This document shows positions 4,551 to 34,473 of a DNA stretch of 64,000 nucleotides, piece by piece; the stretch's first letter is position 1; each line of letters opens with the position of its first letter. The DNA is taken from contig JARGFI010000004.1 in assembly GCA_029210745.1 (NCBI GenBank), positions 8,852 to 72,851 on the forward strand. Reading direction: 5' to 3'. The notes under the pieces were generated by a model that saw nothing but the letters and a program-made list of their open reading frames with translations, was not told the DNA's origin and ran no database searches. The DNA is from Desulfuromonadales bacterium. GTDB lineage: Bacteria > Desulfobacterota > Desulfuromonadia > Desulfuromonadales > JAHYIW01. The translations under genes and the position numbers were made by a program.

Positions 4551-5150
4551 ATGACAAAACATCTTTTATACGCTGCATTGCTGGTGCTGTTGAGCGCCCC
4601 GCTGGCTGTTGCCGACACCTTCTCGATCGATCCGGCACACTCGCAAGTTCATTTCAGTGTTCGCCACATGGTGATGTTCAATGTTCGCGGAGCCTTCACT
4701 GACTTTTCGGGAACCATTGAGGCTGATTTGGCCAGCAAGGCCCTGAAAGGGGTGACGGCGACAATCCTCACCGCATCTATCGACACGCGCGAAAAAAAAC
4801 GCGATGAGCACCTGCGCAGTGCCGACTTTTTCGACGTTGCCAACCACCCGAAAATGATCTTTACCCTGGATCGCGTTGTCGGGACAAGCGACGATCTGAC
4901 CATTTACGGTAAACTGACGATTCGCGGCATCACCAAAACTGTTGCCTTGCACGGAAAATATCTCGGCGCCAGTACCGATCCGTGGGGCAATCTCCGGGTC
5001 GGTTTCGAAGGAACCGCAACCGTCAATCGTCGTGACTTCGGGTTAACCTGGAACAAGATGCTGGAGGCCGGGGGATATCTGGTCGGTGATCAGGTAGAGA
5101 TCGGCGTGGAGATTGAGGCTATCAAAGGTAGCCATCGGTTCGAAGATTGA
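4551..5150 (+). CDS. yceI: YceI-family periplasmic polyisoprenoid-binding protein
   Basis: It has a signal peptide (LLVLLSAPLAVA), the YceI signature SIDPAHSQVHFSVRHMVMFNVRGAFTDFSGTI, and a GGAG RBS. Confidence 0.85.
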   Translation: MTKHLLYAALLVLLSAPLAVADTFSIDPAHSQVHFSVRHMVMFNVRGAFTDFSGTIEADLASKALKGVTATILTASIDTREKKRDEHLRSADFFDVANHPKMIFTLDRVVGTSDDLTIYGKLTIRGITKTVALHGKYLGASTDPWGNLRVGFEGTATVNRRDFGLTWNKMLEAGGYLVGDQVEIGVEIEAIKGSHRFED

Positions 5151-5175
5151 GGCCATCAGACAATAACCATTGTCA

Positions 5176-5207
5176 AACGCCCCCGCAGCTTGCGCTGCGG
5201 GGGCGTT
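5176..5207. terminator. Strong hairpin between the convergent genes yceI and gabD
   Basis: The stem is AACGCCCCCGCAGC-ttgc-GCTGCGGGGGCGTT (14 bp). The flanking U-tracts are weak. Confidence 0.55.
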
Positions 5208-5232
5208 GTTAGTGCAGATCCGGCGACGGTGG

Positions 5233-6699
5233 TCAGCTATCGATCCCCGCCATGCACAGGTATTTGATTTCCAGATAATCGTCGACCCCATATTTTGAAC
5301 CTTCGCGGCCATTTCCCGATTCCTTGACCCCCCCGAAAGGGGCCACCGGATTTGACACCAGCCCGGTATTGATCCCGATCATTCCATATTCCAGCGCCTC
5401 TCCGACCCGCCAGGTCCGGGCGAGGTCGCGCGTGTAAACATAGGCGGCCAGTCCAAATTCGGTGTCGTTGGCCATCTGGAGCGCTTCTGCTTCGCTGGTG
5501 AAGCGGAAGAGCGGGGCCAACGGACCGAAGGTTTCCTCACGGGCGACCAGCATCTGCGCGGTCGCGCCGGTCAATACCGTCGGTTCAAAAAAAGTCCCAC
5601 CGCTGGCATGGCGTTTGCCCCCGTAGATGACCTTCCCCCCCTTGGCGAGGGCATCGGCAAGATGTTCCTCGACCTTTTCCAGCGCCGCCATATCGATCAG
5701 CGGGCCCTGCTGGGTGTCCCCTTGCAGACCGTCACCGACGCGCAGCGTGGCAACGGCGACCGCCAACTTTGCAGCAAACTGATCATAAACCCCATCCTGA
5801 ACCAGAAACCGGTTGGTGCAGACGCAGGTCTGGCCGGTATTGCGATACTTGGAAATCATCGCCCCTTCGACCGCGGCATCAAGATCAGCATCATCGAAGA
5901 CAATAAAGGGCGCGTTGCCACCCAGTTCCATCGAGACCTTCTTCATCGTTCCGGCGCACTGCATCATCAGCTCTTTGCCCACTTCCGTAGAGCCGGTGAA
6001 GGTCAGCTTGCGGACCAGCGGATTGGCCGTCATCTCACCACCAATCGCCCCCGAAGCCCCGGTCACGACATTGAAAACCCCTGCCGGAATCCCGGCACGC
6101 GCGCCAAGTTCGGCCATCGCCAGCGCTGAATAAGGGGTCGCCGTCGCCGGTTTGGCCACCATCGGACAGCCGACCGCCAACGCCGGACCCGCCTTGCGCG
6201 CCAGCATGGCGGTGGGGAAATTCCAGGGGGTGATCGCGGCGCACACGCCGATCGGTTCCTTGATCACCACCAGCCGCTGGCTACTGAGGGTTGGAGGAAT
6301 CACGTCACCGTAAATCCGCTTCCCTTCTTCGGCGAACCATTCGATAAAAGAGGCACCGTAAGCAATCTCACCGCGCGCTTCGGCCAACGGTTTGCCTTGC
6401 TCGGCGGTCATGATAACGGCCAGATCTTCCTGATGTTCAAGGAGCAGGTCGCGCCATTGACGCAGAATGGCACTGCGCTCTGCAGCAGGCCTGCGTCGCC
6501 ACGCTGACCAGGCACGGTTGGCCGCGGCGATCGCCCGGCGCGTCTCAATCGCCCCCATTTTGGGGATAGTCCCCAACCTATCGCCGGTAGCCGGGTTGGT
6601 GACCGCAATCGTTTCGCCGCTGTCAGCGTCCAGCCATTCACCATCGATGTAGCACTGCTGCCGCAGCAGTGTTGCGTCGCGTAACTTTTCCTTCAACAT
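5233..6699 (-). CDS. gabD: Succinate-semialdehyde dehydrogenase (NAD(P)+)
   Basis: This is a 488-aa ALDH-family protein. Long stretches are near-identical to my recollection of E. coli GabD: [34 protein letters not shown] and [20 protein letters not shown]. Confidence 0.9.
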
Positions 6700-25443: not shown

Positions 25444-28942
<3,499 letters not shown>

Positions 28943-28992
28943 TTTTTATTCACATTTAAAAGACTTTTAAAATAATTTTATTATTTAATAAA

Positions 28993-30114
28993 TTACAAAC
29001 GCATTGGCATAATAACAGCTAAATAGTCGTCATTATCATCTGGAACTATTATTCCAGGAGAAATATTATCATTTAATTTAAGAATAATATTTTCACATTG
29101 TTGTATTTGCAAAATATCAATCATAAAACGAACATTAAAACCTATAATCATTTCCGGTCCGGAATAATCAACTCCAAGATCCTCGTGTGATTCACCTAAT
29201 TCTGGATTCGATGACGAAATATTTACATTGTTTAGTGTTAAAGATATTTTTATACCACGTGATTTTTCACTTGTTAAAATTGACATCCTTTTCAATACAT
29301 GAAGAAAATCATTACGGGGAATTACAACATTATGCATATTATTTTTTGGAATAACTCTTTTATAATCCGGAAAATCTCCATCAACAAGTCGCATAACAAT
29401 CAGCGTTTTATCTTTACTGATCACAGCATTATTGTCTTGAATTCCTATTTCTATATAGTCTTCTGATTCATCTGTTATTTTTTTAAGTTCAGTTATTCCT
29501 TTACGTGGAAAAATAACGCCATCAAATAACTCATCAATATTTGTTTGTTCAATACAATGGTCTATTTGCGAAAGACGATGTCCATCGGTCGCGACCAAGC
29601 GTAAAAAATATTTTTCTTCTTCGGATATAACATTAAAAAATATTCCATTTAAATTATATTTGCTTTCATCTGTCGACATGGAAAGTGCTGTTTTTTCGAT
29701 CAAACTGTTCAATTTGGAACAGTCAATTTTTAAAAATTTTGTTTCTTCGGCTGTTGGAAAGTGTGGAAATTCATCGGCTGCCAAACCAACAATATTAAAA
29801 ACGGCTTTTCCACATTTTATTTCTATCCAACAATTTTCTTTAGATTTAAACGAAAGTATTGTTTCTGGGAGTTCCTTGATAATTTCGTAAATTTTCTTTG
29901 CTGATACGGTTATTTTCCCTGTTTTTTCAACTTGTGCCGGATAATTTGCCCGCATACCTACTTCCAGGTCGGTTGCAGTCAGCTGAATTTCTCCGTTATT
30001 TGTTGCTTCAATGAGAACATTAGCCAAAATCGGAATCGTATTGCGTTTTTCTACAATTCCCTGAATTTTACCTAGCCCCTTAAGGAAGATGTTTTTTTCA
30101 ATTTGAAATTCCAT
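28993..30114 (-). CDS. dnaN: DNA polymerase III beta sliding clamp
   Basis: This 373-aa protein starts MEFQIEKN and contains PILANVLIEA and the C-terminal LAVIMPMRL. It is the lowest-GC gene in the window. Confidence 0.95.
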   Translation of the reverse strand: MEFQIEKNIFLKGLGKIQGIVEKRNTIPILANVLIEATNNGEIQLTATDLEVGMRANYPAQVEKTGKITVSAKKIYEIIKELPETILSFKSKENCWIEIKCGKAVFNIVGLAADEFPHFPTAEETKFLKIDCSKLNSLIEKTALSMSTDESKYNLNGIFFNVISEEEKYFLRLVATDGHRLSQIDHCIEQTNIDELFDGVIFPRKGITELKKITDESEDYIEIGIQDNNAVISKDKTLIVMRLVDGDFPDYKRVIPKNNMHNVVIPRNDFLHVLKRMSILTSEKSRGIKISLTLNNVNISSSNPELGESHEDLGVDYSGPEMIIGFNVRFMIDILQIQQCENIILKLNDNISPGIIVPDDNDDYLAVIMPMRL

Positions 30115-30329
30115 GATTACTCCTCCCCCTGTTATTGTTATTTATATTTATAAAAAACATAGTAGATAGTAATAAGTCCTGTTGATTTGTTTTTATCGGC
30201 ATAATTAACTGTTTTATAAAGATTTTTTTGATTGATAAAATTGTTTATAAATATTTTTTATAAACAGGTGACAATTTTAATTTTCAAAAAAAGTCTATTT
30301 GTGAACAATTACCCACACCTGTTAACACC
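30115..30329. other. Extremely AT-rich dnaA-dnaN spacer; candidate DNA-unwinding half of a bipartite oriC
   Basis: DnaA-box-like sites are TTACCCACA (30309-30317, 1 mismatch) and TGTGAACAA (30300-30308, 2 mismatches). A TAG/TAA trinucleotide run sits at 30160-30175. An inverted repeat TGTTTATAA-N7-TTATAAACA sits at 30242-30266. Confidence 0.35.
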
Positions 30330-31706
30330 TTATCTCTCCAAACTGGCTTTAAGGGTGTTGATAGTTTTTTCCAGTTGAAAATCATCAGCAAGTCGACTTT
30401 CAATTCTTTTTATGGCATGGATAATGGTTGAATGATCCTTGCCACCAAATTTTTCTCCTATTTCAGGATAAGAACTGGAAGTAATTTGACGTGATATATA
30501 CATAGCTATTTGTCGAGGGAGTACTAATGCTTTAAGTCTTTTAGGGGATTTTAAATCTGAAATTTTTATATTGAAATGAGAGGCAACAGTTTTTTGAATA
30601 TCCTCAATACTTGTTTCCCTGTTTTTTTCAACCAGAATATCTTTAAGAACGTCTTTGGCCATGTTTATATTGATTGTGGCTGAAGTCAAACTGGCATATG
30701 CGCCAATTCTGACGAGATAACCTTCCAGCTCACGAACATTACTGCTGGCCGAATTTGCAATAAAATAACATACGTCTTCAGGCAATTTTATGCTGTTCTG
30801 TTCAGCTTTCATTTTTAAAATTGCCTGTTTTGTTTCAACATCAGGCGCTTGTATATCAGCTATTAATCCCCATTCAAAACGGGAGCGCAAGCGCTCTTCC
30901 AGCCCTGGAATATCTTTGGGAAATTTATCCGATGTAACGACAATTTGTTTATTCGATTCATAAAGCGCATTAAATGTATGAAAAAACTCTTCCTGGGTTC
31001 GCTCTTTGCCGGCGATAAACTGAACGTCATCAATCAACAGGATATCCATCGAACGAAATTTATTGCGAAATTCATCCATTTTTGCGTAGCGCAGACAATT
31101 AATAAGCTCGTTCATAAATTTTTCTGATGTGTAATAACAAACGCGCACTTTCGGATTTGCCGCAATAATGTGATTACCAATGGCATTGATCAGGTGGGTT
31201 TTGCCAAGCCCTACTCCTCCATAGATAAAGAGTGGGTTATAGGTTGTAGCAGGTTTATTTGCTACCGCCATTGCTGCGGCAAATGCAAACTGGTTGGAAG
31301 AACCTGAAACAAATTCATTGAATGTATATTTTTCGTTAATGTTAAAATGGTTGGCACAATTAAATGGGGACTCGTTATTATTTAAATTTTTCTTATCTTT
31401 TTTTTCTGCTGATTTTTCTTGTTTGTCATTGGTGATCGGAAAAGTTGTTTCACTGACGGGACGCTTTAAATCTTTATTTATTTTAAAAGTGACCTGATAA
31501 TCAGTACCGATGTCGGACAGGGTTTCACAAATGATTTCAGTGTAGTTATCGCGCACCCAGTCATGGATAAAACGATTCGGAACTTCCAGACATACACGAC
31601 CGTTGTCGATTCCTTTGAAGCGAAGGGGTTTTATCCATGTTTTAAAATGCTGAGGATTAAGCTTTTTCTCGAGATGATCAAGAATTTTTTGCCAGATATC
31701 TTCCAT
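30330..31706 (-). CDS. dnaA: Chromosomal replication initiator protein DnaA
   Basis: The track start (GTG at 31748) overlaps a DnaA box. I prefer the ATG at 31706 (MEDIWQKILDHLEKKL), which is typical of DnaA domain I. AAA+ motifs GGVGLGKTHL and LLIDDVQF are present, with domain IV KDHSTIIHA. Confidence 0.95.
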   Translation of the reverse strand: MEDIWQKILDHLEKKLNPQHFKTWIKPLRFKGIDNGRVCLEVPNRFIHDWVRDNYTEIICETLSDIGTDYQVTFKINKDLKRPVSETTFPITNDKQEKSAEKKDKKNLNNNESPFNCANHFNINEKYTFNEFVSGSSNQFAFAAAMAVANKPATTYNPLFIYGGVGLGKTHLINAIGNHIIAANPKVRVCYYTSEKFMNELINCLRYAKMDEFRNKFRSMDILLIDDVQFIAGKERTQEEFFHTFNALYESNKQIVVTSDKFPKDIPGLEERLRSRFEWGLIADIQAPDVETKQAILKMKAEQNSIKLPEDVCYFIANSASSNVRELEGYLVRIGAYASLTSATININMAKDVLKDILVEKNRETSIEDIQKTVASHFNIKISDLKSPKRLKALVLPRQIAMYISRQITSSSYPEIGEKFGGKDHSTIIHAIKRIESRLADDFQLEKTINTLKASLER

Positions 31707-31738
31707 AAAACCGGTTGTTTTCCTCTTGATACAACGAT

Positions 31739-31770
31739 TTATCCACACTTTGTTGACAGGGTGTGGATAT
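31739..31770. promoter_or_regulatory. Inverted pair of DnaA boxes flanking a TTGACA hexamer, upstream of dnaA
   Basis: TTATCCACA (31739-31747) matches the consensus perfectly. TGTGGATAT (31762-31770) has 1 mismatch to TGTGGATAA. The arms ATCCACAC and GTGTGGAT form an 8-bp inverted repeat with a 12-nt spacer containing TTGACA (31753-31758). Confidence 0.65.
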
Positions 31771-31923
31771 TTAAATAAGTGTATTTTCTTCAGGTGTTAA
31801 GCGGTTGTCGGGTGTTTGTATAATGACACTGCACGCTAGCAAACGTCCCTTTTATTTGCAAGTTGTTTTTCATGTTTGCTTCCGTTTGAAATAAACACTT
31901 AAGGTGAATCCGGAATTTTGCTC

Positions 31924-31952
31924 TTGACAAAGCTTTTTGATCTGTTTAAAAG
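31924..31952 (+). promoter_or_regulatory. Candidate rpmH promoter (TTGACA-N17-TAAAAG)
   Basis: Hexamer match only. It lies about 45 nt upstream of the rpmH ATG. Confidence 0.35.
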
Positions 31953-31996
31953 TACCCTTTGCCTAAAATTCGTTAAAGTAAGGAGTTTATAAGAGC

Positions 31997-32149
31997 ATGT
32001 CCAAAAGAACCTATCAGCCGAGTCGAATCAGCCGGAAAAGAACCCACGGATTCCGCAAACGGATGCGCAGTAAAAATGGCAGCGCTGTTATCAAGCGTCG
32101 GCGTGCACGCGGGCGCAGAGTGCTCGCGGCAACGACCCCTGTAAAATAA
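31997..32149 (+). CDS. rpmH: 50S ribosomal protein L34
   Basis: It is below the track cutoff. The translation is [50 protein letters not shown] (50 aa), with an AAGGAG RBS. Confidence 0.95.
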
Positions 32150-32169
32150 CGATTATTGATGGTCTTGTT

Positions 32170-32547
32170 ATTATTCAATCTTGCGCAGAATATACTTTTC
32201 CGAAGGAAAATCGTTTACGTAAACGTCATCAATATCAGCAAACGTGGCTAAACGGTCGTAAGCTGCGTACAAAAAATTTCTTGATTGTTGTTTGTCGACG
32301 TGATTCAGTGTGCGCCTGCCGTGTGGGGATCACCGTCAGCCGCAAAGTCGGTGGCGCAGTGGTTCGCAATCGCGTGAAACGAATGATCCGGGAGTATGTC
32401 AGAATTCATTATCGGCGGCTGCCTACAGCCGCCGATATTTCCATTATAGCCCGACCCGGCACAGCCGTTCTTTCCTCTTCGCAACTGCATGCGGAGCTGG
32501 ACATTCTCCTCATGATCGGTGCGGTCGCGTCACATCCTGAAGATTGA
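32170..32547 (+). CDS. rnpA: Ribonuclease P protein component (start codon unresolved)
   Basis: The track gives only 32281-32547 (TTG start). The conserved N-terminal part [34 protein letters not shown] is encoded in the same frame upstream. That frame has no ATG, GTG or TTG between the TAA at 32071 and 32281. ATT codons at 32152, 32155, 32170 and 32173 are the only near-cognate candidates. The RNR motif [11 protein letters not shown] is present. Confidence 0.75.
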
Positions 32548-32552
32548 GATCG

Positions 32553-32795: not shown

Positions 32796-34457
32796 ATGGA
32801 AGAGAACAATAAAAACTTAATCATCGCACTGACCTTGATGGCTGTTGTCTGGCTCGGTTATAATTTTTTGTTTCCCGCGCAGCCTGCCCCTCCGGTCACG
32901 GCGACGACTGAGGTCGTAACGCCTCCGACAACCGTCGGGTTATCCTCTAAAGCCGATGAACCCGCCGCGCTGCCTGTAACTGCGTCGCTGACAAATGCGG
33001 TCAATCGCCATGGTGTAGAGAATACTGACCACCTCACCGACCGAATCGAAACGACCTCCACAGAAGAGCGTATGCTGCTGGTTGAGACCGACCTTTATCG
33101 TCTCCAGTTGTCAAGTGTCGGCGCGGTGGTGAAGTCAATAGAATTGAAAAAATATCGGCAGGAAGCGGACAGTGATGCCCCCTTCACTGTTATTAATAGC
33201 CCTTCCTTGCAACTGGCGACGCTACGTTCTTCCGGGACCGAAGAATTTTCTTTATCCGCGCAGACCCCCTTCTCTTTATCAACTACCGCGTCGTCGCTCA
33301 ACCTGAGCAGGAATGACAGTCAAACGGTGGTTTTTACTGCGCGCACTCCTTCCGGGGCGTTGCTGGAGAAGTCTTATACTTTTTATGCCGATCGCTATAC
33401 GATCGACCTTACGCAGCAGTTGACAAACACAAGTCTCAAGCCTTTGCGCGGACAATCCTCGTTGACCCTGGTTGAATTGTGGGATGATTCCGATAAGGGG
33501 GCGATGTACGAATTTGTCGGTCCGATGACTTTGGTTGGTGAGGAAGTTGAGACGGTTGCTCCCAAGGATCTTAAAAAAGGTTCCAAGTCTTTTATCGCTC
33601 CGGTGTGGAGCGGGTTTGAAACCAAATATTTCATGTCGGTGGCGGTACCGCTCAATTCCGCTGCAGAACAAGTCAAGCTGGAATTGACCGCGCAGAGCGT
33701 CGAAAATACTTTCATCAGCCCGTTGATGACGCTGGCCCCGCAAGAAACCCGGAAGCTCGATTACCTCCTTTATTTTGGCCCGCGTGATCCAGATCAGCTT
33801 CAAATCGTCGGCCATCGCCTCGTTGAGTCTATAGATTACGGTTTTTTTGCCATTATTGCCGAACCTCTGGTACATATACTTAAGTTTTTTTACGGCTATA
33901 TCGGTAATTACGGTGTTTCCATTATTCTGCTAACGATCCTGATCAAGGCACTGTTCTGGCCGTTGACACACAAGAGTTACGCCTCAATGAAGGCGATGCA
34001 GCAGCTGCAACCTGAAATCACCAAGTTGAAAGAAAAATACAAGAATGACCGCGAAAAGATGAACAAGGCGGTCATGGAAATGTATAAGGAAAAGAAGGTT
34101 AACCCGGTGGGCGGTTGTTTGCCGATGCTGGTGCAGATACCGGTGTTTTTCGCTCTCTACCGAGCCTTGCTGGGCACCATCGATCTGCGTCACGCCTCAT
34201 TCGGTTTGTGGTTGACCGACTTGTCCGCGAAGGACCCTTATTACATTACCCCGGTAGTTATGGGGATCACCATGTTTATTCAGCAGAAGATGTCACCCAG
34301 TACAATGGACCCGACCCAGGCGAAAATCTTCATGTTTATGCCGATAATTTTCACCTTCCTCTTTCTGAATTTTCCGTCGGGGCTGGTTATCTATTGGCTG
34401 GTCAACAACGTACTAACGATTGCGCAACAGTATTTTATTAATAAAAAACCGTCATGA
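32796..34457 (+). CDS. yidC: Membrane protein insertase YidC
   Basis: It has an N-terminal TM helix, a large periplasmic domain and the C-terminal 60-kDa insertase core (GCLPMLVQIPVFFALY, FPSGLVIYWLVNN). Confidence 0.92.
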   Translation: MEENNKNLIIALTLMAVVWLGYNFLFPAQPAPPVTATTEVVTPPTTVGLSSKADEPAALPVTASLTNAVNRHGVENTDHLTDRIETTSTEERMLLVETDLYRLQLSSVGAVVKSIELKKYRQEADSDAPFTVINSPSLQLATLRSSGTEEFSLSAQTPFSLSTTASSLNLSRNDSQTVVFTARTPSGALLEKSYTFYADRYTIDLTQQLTNTSLKPLRGQSSLTLVELWDDSDKGAMYEFVGPMTLVGEEVETVAPKDLKKGSKSFIAPVWSGFETKYFMSVAVPLNSAAEQVKLELTAQSVENTFISPLMTLAPQETRKLDYLLYFGPRDPDQLQIVGHRLVESIDYGFFAIIAEPLVHILKFFYGYIGNYGVSIILLTILIKALFWPLTHKSYASMKAMQQLQPEITKLKEKYKNDREKMNKAVMEMYKEKKVNPVGGCLPMLVQIPVFFALYRALLGTIDLRHASFGLWLTDLSAKDPYYITPVVMGITMFIQQKMSPSTMDPTQAKIFMFMPIIFTFLFLNFPSGLVIYWLVNNVLTIAQQYFINKKPS

Positions 34458-34473
34458 TTGATGAGCAGCTATT

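Follow-up and report, generated by a model that had tools for sequence, protein, structure and literature searches.

The stretch of DNA analysed here (the window; 64,000 nucleotides of the genome of Desulfuromonadales bacterium) includes the chromosomal origin region. The genes rpmH, rnpA, yidD and yidC follow one another in that order on the plus strand (ORF list and gene tables), the minimum of the cumulative GC skew falls at 30-31 kb of the window, and the sole perfect copy of the DnaA box, TTATCCACA, occupies 31739-31747. Exact protein matches and the names of the matched proteins point to an uncultured bacterium of the Desulfuromonadales/Desulfuromonadaceae. The rnpA gene has the position expected of a gene for RnpA, directly 3' of rpmH and 5' of yidD-yidC, and rpmH itself begins with ATG behind a strong SD (AAGGAG) and ends at a TAA stop (32147-32149). 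The features on which the analysis bears are as follows.

Origin region, minus strand: gyrA and gyrB.
27848-28942, minus strand: recF.
28993-30114, minus strand: dnaN.
30330-31706/31748, minus strand: dnaA.
27848-32293: low-GC region comprising recF, dnaN, dnaA, the DnaA-box/promoter spacer and the 5' end of rnpA.
31997-32149, plus strand: rpmH, encoding ribosomal protein L34 (50 aa; ORF list, PF00468).
32150-32169, plus strand: rpmH-rnpA spacer of 20 nt, non-coding (alignment, junction comparison, SD energies).
32159-32161, plus strand: out-of-frame ATG, in the rpmH frame, not conserved (AAC in a relative, L083).
32170-32175, plus strand: ATT-ATT doublet, one codon of which is the proposed rnpA initiation codon.
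32173-32547, plus strand: rnpA coding sequence, RNase P protein (PF00825, structure alignment, pN/pS).
32281-32283, plus strand: TTG, the first canonical start-type codon in the rnpA frame, predicted to be an internal Leu codon.
32280-32315: support interval of a GC change point, best estimate 32294.

The dnaA ORF can be extended from the ATG at 31706 up to a GTG at 31748, an extension that overlaps the perfect DnaA box; the NCBI dnaA call is the 458-aa ATG form. A near-perfect DnaA box in inverted orientation is present at 31762-31770, and, of 11 DnaA-box-like matches across the window, five fall between 28946 and 31770. Comparison with Rfam revealed no RNA family anywhere in the window, and thus no rnpB gene there. 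The sole promoter-like match returned by a promoter scan lies downstream, at 32835-32864; the scan did not flag a visually plausible rpmH promoter (TTGACA at 31924).

Inspection of the rnpA frame codon by codon showed that, beyond the TAA at 32071-32073, the next ATG, GTG or TTG is the TTG at 32281, in agreement with a preliminary description of this DNA that had claimed the absence of these codons between the two positions. The same description had listed ATT at 32152, 32155, 32170 and 32173 and ATA at 32146 as near-cognate codons, a list recovered here with the addition of CTG at 32263, and had assigned the ATG at 32159 to another frame; that ATG is found in the frame of rpmH, within a 31-aa ORF (32156-32251) that has no Pfam match and is spurious. 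The rnpA frame in the window is open back into rpmH, to 32074, and terminates at TGA (32545-32547), giving a product of 124 aa if read from 32173 or 125 aa if read from 32170. The ORF list gives an 88-aa ORF (32281-32547), for which an exact look-up returned no match. Among dnaA-linked rnpA loci from diverse bacteria, a canonical start occurs no more than five codons past the F-P motif of the protein in 52 of 52; the only loci in that survey lacking one are the window and its two closest relatives. The rnpA gene of Desulfuromonadales bacterium and its clade is without an ATG, GTG or TTG start.

The segment encoded upstream of TTG 32281 had been described as a conserved RnpA N-terminus, conserved residues of which would be deleted by a start at that TTG. 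Both statements are borne out. The sequence YTFPKENRL...NFLIVV aligns over its full length with 21 RnpA homologues, all 36 codons upstream of the TTG being included in the alignment, and these homologues begin 5-9 residues before the F-P motif, a position that corresponds to 32170/32173; the start of rnpA is accordingly placed there by homology. Compared with the PF00825 profile, the 124-aa form scores 98.2 bits (cut-off 22.3) and covers profile positions 1-105 of 109 with its residues 9-113, and the 88-aa form covers positions 34-105 only, so that positions 1-33 are supplied by the segment upstream of TTG 32281. The RNR motif region (SRKVGxAVxRNRxKR) is present, and its columns are invariant or nearly so in the homologue alignment. 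Structures of RnpA from S. aureus, B. subtilis, T. maritima and E. coli were aligned with the rnpA product, and the alignments begin at residues 3-6 of the solved chains (residue 24 in the longer chain 6ov1) and residues 7-13 of the query, or at about residue 5 against query residue 10. On this reading the TTG at 32281 is an internal Leu codon (NF-L-IVV) and not a start.

Related assemblies allow the start to be bounded more closely. As sampled, the clade comprises only three diverged genomes, all of them metagenome or short-read assemblies. Over the 701 nt compared, the assembly GCA_032251495.1 (L001) matches the window exactly, and the two are perhaps not independent; GCA_019429445.1 (L002) is about 99% identical, with spacer and ATT-ATT exactly as in the window; and the Logan assembly of SRR22387952 (L083) encodes a DnaA 94% identical to that of the window. 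The L083 junction reads TAG-CAATAAAACGGTCTCGTT-ATT-ATT-CAC-TCT, with GTT ATT ATT retained. Its spacer differs from that of the window by a 2-nt deletion and several substitutions (a gap of 18 nt vs 20), rpmH and rnpA share a frame with two stops (TAG and TAA) between them, AAC stands in place of ATG 32159, the upstream ATT pair (32152/32155) is absent, and an in-frame TAA occurs four codons 5' of ATT-ATT. Because of this TAA and the loss of the upstream pair, ATT 32170 and ATT 32173 are the only near-cognate candidates that remain ahead of the conserved N-terminus, and the predicted start is bounded to these two codons by the comparison with L083. The doublet is kept in the window, L001, L002 and L083 while the adjacent spacer has diverged.

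Substitutions within the coding sequence are in keeping with this placement. Between the window and L002, the first 42 rnpA codons show three synonymous and no non-synonymous differences, and pN/pS over the whole gene is 0.17; between the window and L083, pS is 0.24 and pN 0.059 over the first 21 rnpA codons, which are all that L083 covers. By these measures the N-terminal codons of rnpA are under purifying selection and, since the spacer has meanwhile diverged and acquired an indel, coding constraint is seen to begin at the ATT doublet. Taken at the level of its predicted product, rnpA is an intact, bona fide and presumably functional gene for the RNase P protein. Within its coding sequence, on the plus strand at 32410-32437, is a perfect stem-loop of 12 bp (TATCGGCGGCTG-CCTA-CAGCCGCCGATA, then TTTCCATTAT). 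Terminator-like, with a folding energy of -23 kcal/mol and a z-score of -6.1, it has no second copy in the window and is unchanged in L001 and L002; it may act as an attenuator within the gene or, ahead of yidD-yidC, as a stabiliser.

Existing annotations of this gene are inconsistent. NCBI calls rnpA in L002 at 6177-6551, equivalent to a start at 32173 of the window, as a 124-aa 'ribonuclease P protein component' (P0001); the JGI call on the L002 contig is 74 aa; and L001 is without an rnpA call. In four Desulfuromonadales outgroups (L084-L087), the in-frame rnpA starts are GTG or TTG only, 6-19 nt past the rpmH stop, and no in-frame ATG is found there in any of the four. Comparison of the starts used by relatives, a check proposed in the preliminary description, therefore finds ATT-ATT kept throughout the clade and GTG/TTG in use outside it. 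For Geothermobacter hydrogeniphilus (L086; GCA_002093115.1) the NCBI rnpA call is a 119-aa product from an ATA overlapping the rpmH stop (ATAA, 6378-6381), and a GTG five codons downstream in the same frame gives a normal N-terminus, MGRRGQTFP...; the ATA start call is probably not needed. As PGAP chose this ATA despite the in-frame GTG, its non-canonical calls alone are not proof of such starts. In an uncultured Desulfuromonas (L084; ERZ794998) rnpA is called as 87 aa (5141-5404) and rpmH is not called, and in-frame GTG/TTG codons 12 nt past the rpmH stop give a full-length RnpA; the short call is a caller artefact, an under-annotation like that in the clade of the window. Metagenome scans with a degenerate DNA pattern over ATT-ATT and the N-terminus, and with the N-terminal 55 aa (best match 37% identical), retrieved no further members of the clade, and in a scan of genome contigs with DnaA the matches listed were all at 55% identity or less.

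The locus is further marked by a discontinuity in base composition. The preliminary description had reported a switch from 35-40% to 55-57% GC near 32,290-32,310, and a maximum-likelihood change point at 32294 (2-lnL support interval 32280-32315; GC 0.354 to 0.567) places it there as well, with GC3 rising from 0.26 to 0.55. The further suggestion that the break and the missing start fall in the same place holds only in part: the break is real and lies close to TTG 32281, but the proposed start is some 125 nt upstream and, the TTG being the Leu codon of NF-L-IVV, its closeness to the break is irrelevant to initiation. Within rnpA, the break comes about 125 nt after the start site and shortly before the conserved RNR-motif region, and it is best read from these comparisons as a separate, clade-shared feature that leaves the gene undisrupted.

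Leftward of the break, GC in the low-GC region is 0.32-0.40, against about 54% for the genome, with intergenic values of 0.24-0.36; GC3 is 0.36 in recF, 0.22 in dnaN and 0.33 in dnaA (0.22-0.36 for the block, vs about 0.55-0.66 in the flanks). Within this setting rpmH forms a sharp GC-rich island (GC about 0.58, GC3 0.55; change points near 32015 and 32142), beyond which the 5' end of rnpA is again low in GC. On its left side, in recF/gyrB, the block grades into the neighbouring sequence with no sharp edge. Low GC3 is common to L002 and L083 and is absent in the nearest outgroup, L084 (0.64-0.69 in dnaA, dnaN and recF). Identity of the encoded proteins to those of the four outgroups is 76-80% for GyrB, 69-73% for DnaA, 61-63% for DnaN and 42-48% for RecF; expressed relative to divergence between outgroups, the ratio is 1.23-1.32 for block genes and 0.94-1.15 for flanking genes. 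In a protein search the best matches of DnaA outside the clade, at 69-73% identity, were from Desulfuromonas, Geothermobacter and Trichloromonas. The block thus has the deviating composition of a horizontally acquired island and not the foreign phylogenetic affinity. A distant low-GC donor was considered and rejected, DnaA, DnaN and RecF being of Desulfuromonadales type. The block could have arisen by in-situ AT drift, or it could have been replaced by the DNA of an unsampled relative of low GC from the same order, the crossover falling near the conserved RNR-motif region of rnpA. Either origin could explain historically how GTG or TTG gave way to ATT, and neither alters the conclusion reached about present-day initiation. 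This low-GC block of replication genes is the more puzzling feature of the region and may deserve a study of its own.

Other accounts of the missing start were weighed against initiation at ATT. That the real product is the 88-aa protein beginning at TTG 32281, with the open frame upstream of it untranslated, is suggested by the TTG being the first canonical start-type codon in the frame and by the similarly short products that gene callers give in relatives (87 aa in L084, 74 aa for JGI on the L002 contig). Such a protein would nonetheless be missing profile positions 1-33, an N-terminal part found in all solved RnpA structures; the 36 codons that it leaves untranslated align with homologues and differ from L002 at synonymous sites only; the TTG has no SD (dG +0.6); and the short L084 call is an artefact, full length being reached there from in-frame GTG/TTG. 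The preliminary description had allowed that conservation of the 88-aa form among orthologues would speak against its interpretation, and the 21 homologues instead include the N-terminal segment. We consider an 88-aa product very improbable. Still harder to credit is that ATG 32159 (frame 2) joins the rnpA frame through a programmed -1 frameshift or an assembly error of 1 nt, although the F-P motif follows this ATG by 11 codons, a single additional base anywhere in 32159-32197 would restore the frame, and T4 and A4 runs are close by. The same sequence recurs in L002 and, over the 701 nt compared, in L001; L083 has no ATG at this position, and its 2-nt deletion changes the frame relation of rpmH and rnpA; the spacer evolves as non-coding DNA; and ATG 32159 has no SD (dG +0.3). 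A programmed -1 frameshift would call for a slippery site together with an upstream start and a frame relation that are both conserved, a combination that the L083 junction contradicts, and the frameshift, indel or sequencing error entertained in the preliminary description finds no favour in these comparisons. An L34-RnpA fusion by readthrough was also considered and rejected, the frame relation differing between strains.

A different account holds that the event which produced the low-GC block also cost rnpA its start, whether this event was regional AT-biased mutation or homologous replacement by DNA of a low-GC relative, crossing over inside rnpA, and that rnpA is now decaying or marginally expressed. 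The start site does fall within the low-GC segment, which extends rightward to 32294; the block is specific to the clade and absent in L084; its proteins are slightly more diverged, by the ratios given above, than those of the flanks; the use of GTG/TTG in the outgroups implies that ATT arose in the lineage carrying the block; and the break, just upstream of the most conserved stretch of rnpA, would be a plausible crossover site. Against this, some 125 nt separate the break from the start, and both the reading frame and the homologue alignment cross the break undisrupted; decay is hard to reconcile with a pN/pS of 0.17; the ATT doublet has been kept despite divergence of the spacer next to it; and the affinities of DnaA indicate no distant donor. 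A recombination scar, which the preliminary description had offered as a cause of the missing start, is disfavoured on the same grounds: distance to the break, integrity of the gene and the Desulfuromonadales type of DnaA, DnaN and RecF. We judge loss of this kind unlikely, and note that it accounts for the origin of the ATT rather than its present translation and is compatible with ATT initiation.

Initiation at ATT, also raised in the preliminary description, is favoured by the conserved doublet, the upstream TAA of L083 and the positions at which homologues begin, and we assign a probability of about three in four to the reading that translation of rnpA starts at ATT 32170 or ATT 32173. The gene shows the sequence attributes of AUU-initiated genes: no ATG, GTG or TTG at the conserved N-terminus, and an ATT that is at the expected position and conserved. 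The surroundings of the doublet bear on how such a start might be used. With the anti-SD taken as canonical (no 16S rRNA gene lies within the window), the SD energy at the ATT sites, -2.5 kcal/mol, equals the median for random 20-mers from the window, and the spacer (32150-32169) has no SD above background; corresponding values are -8.7 for rpmH, -11.3 for dnaN and -9.5 for gyrA, with no SD at TTG 32281 or ATG 32159. RNA around the rnpA start is predicted to be unstructured, with a fold z-score of +0.99 and a centroid structure that leaves the doublet unpaired. The rpmH stop precedes ATT 32170 by 20 nt and ATT 32173 by 23 nt, and this short stop-to-start gap, combined with the lack of an SD of its own, is characteristic of a translationally coupled second cistron. 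In the same window recF, yidD and jag are likewise without SD above background (+0.4, -2.7 and -1.9 kcal/mol at 28943-28962, 32533-32552 and 34454-34473), strong SDs being located at operon-first genes (dnaN, gyrA, rpmH), which suggests that translational coupling is widely used in this genome.

Published measurements give these features a plausible interpretation. RnpA is held low in bacteria, commonly by GUG or UUG starts, with an L34:RnpA ratio of about 130:1 in E. coli (PMC9945441). Expression from AUU is 6-8 times below that from AUG, a second cistron without SD located 20 nt past a stop is re-initiated at roughly one tenth of the SD-containing level, and A/U-rich sequence enhances such initiation (PMC3592434). 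Together with the absent SD, the unstructured spacer and the weak starts of the outgroups, these data lead us to propose weak re-initiation after rpmH termination. Ribosomes ending L34 synthesis at UAA 32147-32149 would stay on the A/U-rich, unstructured spacer, and a small fraction of them would re-initiate at AUU 32170 or 32173; weak start codon, missing SD and 20-nt gap would then combine to give a very low RnpA:L34 output from one transcript, an outcome that other bacteria reach through GUG or UUG starts. We regard the chances as even that rnpA initiation depends on rpmH termination.

Several known systems offer comparisons. The genes infC and pcnB of E. coli start at AUU, as does ebpA of Enterococcus faecalis (ATT), and by sequence alone rnpA here would do likewise; it resembles these AUU genes in being an essential or dosage-sensitive gene whose translation AUU would keep intrinsically weak. 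Like infC, which starts a few nucleotides past the preceding stop (UAA GGU AUU; PMC3592434), rnpA is a second cistron; and ebpA was also mis-annotated at a downstream canonical codon (PMC4447247). Unlike infC, which is preceded by an SD and for which an IF3 feedback loop has been demonstrated, rnpA has no SD above background, a 20-nt gap and a doublet of ATT codons. Relative to the usual rpmH-rnpA operon of E. coli and many bacteria, gene order, the closeness of rnpA behind rpmH and the weakness of the start codon (GTG in Citrobacter rnpA) are the same; the usual operon starts rnpA at GUG or UUG, whereas the start in this clade is outside ATG/GTG/TTG, so that standard callers miss or truncate the gene. 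In Thermus thermophilus, rpmH is nested in the rnpA reading frame and the two share an initiation site, with neighbouring start codons and a common SD. Both arrangements represent unusual expression of rnpA relative to rpmH, but the genes of the window are sequential, with neither a shared start nor a start-type codon in the overlap. Nesting of the Thermus type was rejected for this locus; rpmH contains no start-type codon in the frame of rnpA, and stops separate the two genes in L083. Provided that initiation is at ATT, as is probable, the rnpA start joins those of the AUU-initiated genes already known from bacteria and extends the weak-start habit of rnpA.

A more elaborate reading, which we advance tentatively and regard as doubtful when taken as a whole, is that rnpA of this clade has moved past GUG/UUG to an SD-less AUU-AUU read only by ribosomes leaving rpmH; that RnpA synthesis would thereby be tied to L34 translation and to IF3 stringency, as an infC-like fidelity sensor; and that the change of start would have arisen with the clade-specific AT-rich remodelling of recF-dnaN-dnaA-DnaA boxes-rnpA 5' end, rpmH being spared.

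In practical terms, gene callers limited to ATG, GTG and TTG drop or truncate an essential rnpA here, and a check of MAG completeness or of essential genes could wrongly score it as missing or broken. As a modest new example of a known phenomenon, AUU initiation, the gene would extend to AUU the trend toward weak starts in rnpA, and it would offer a natural setting in which to test re-initiation without an SD at a non-canonical codon.
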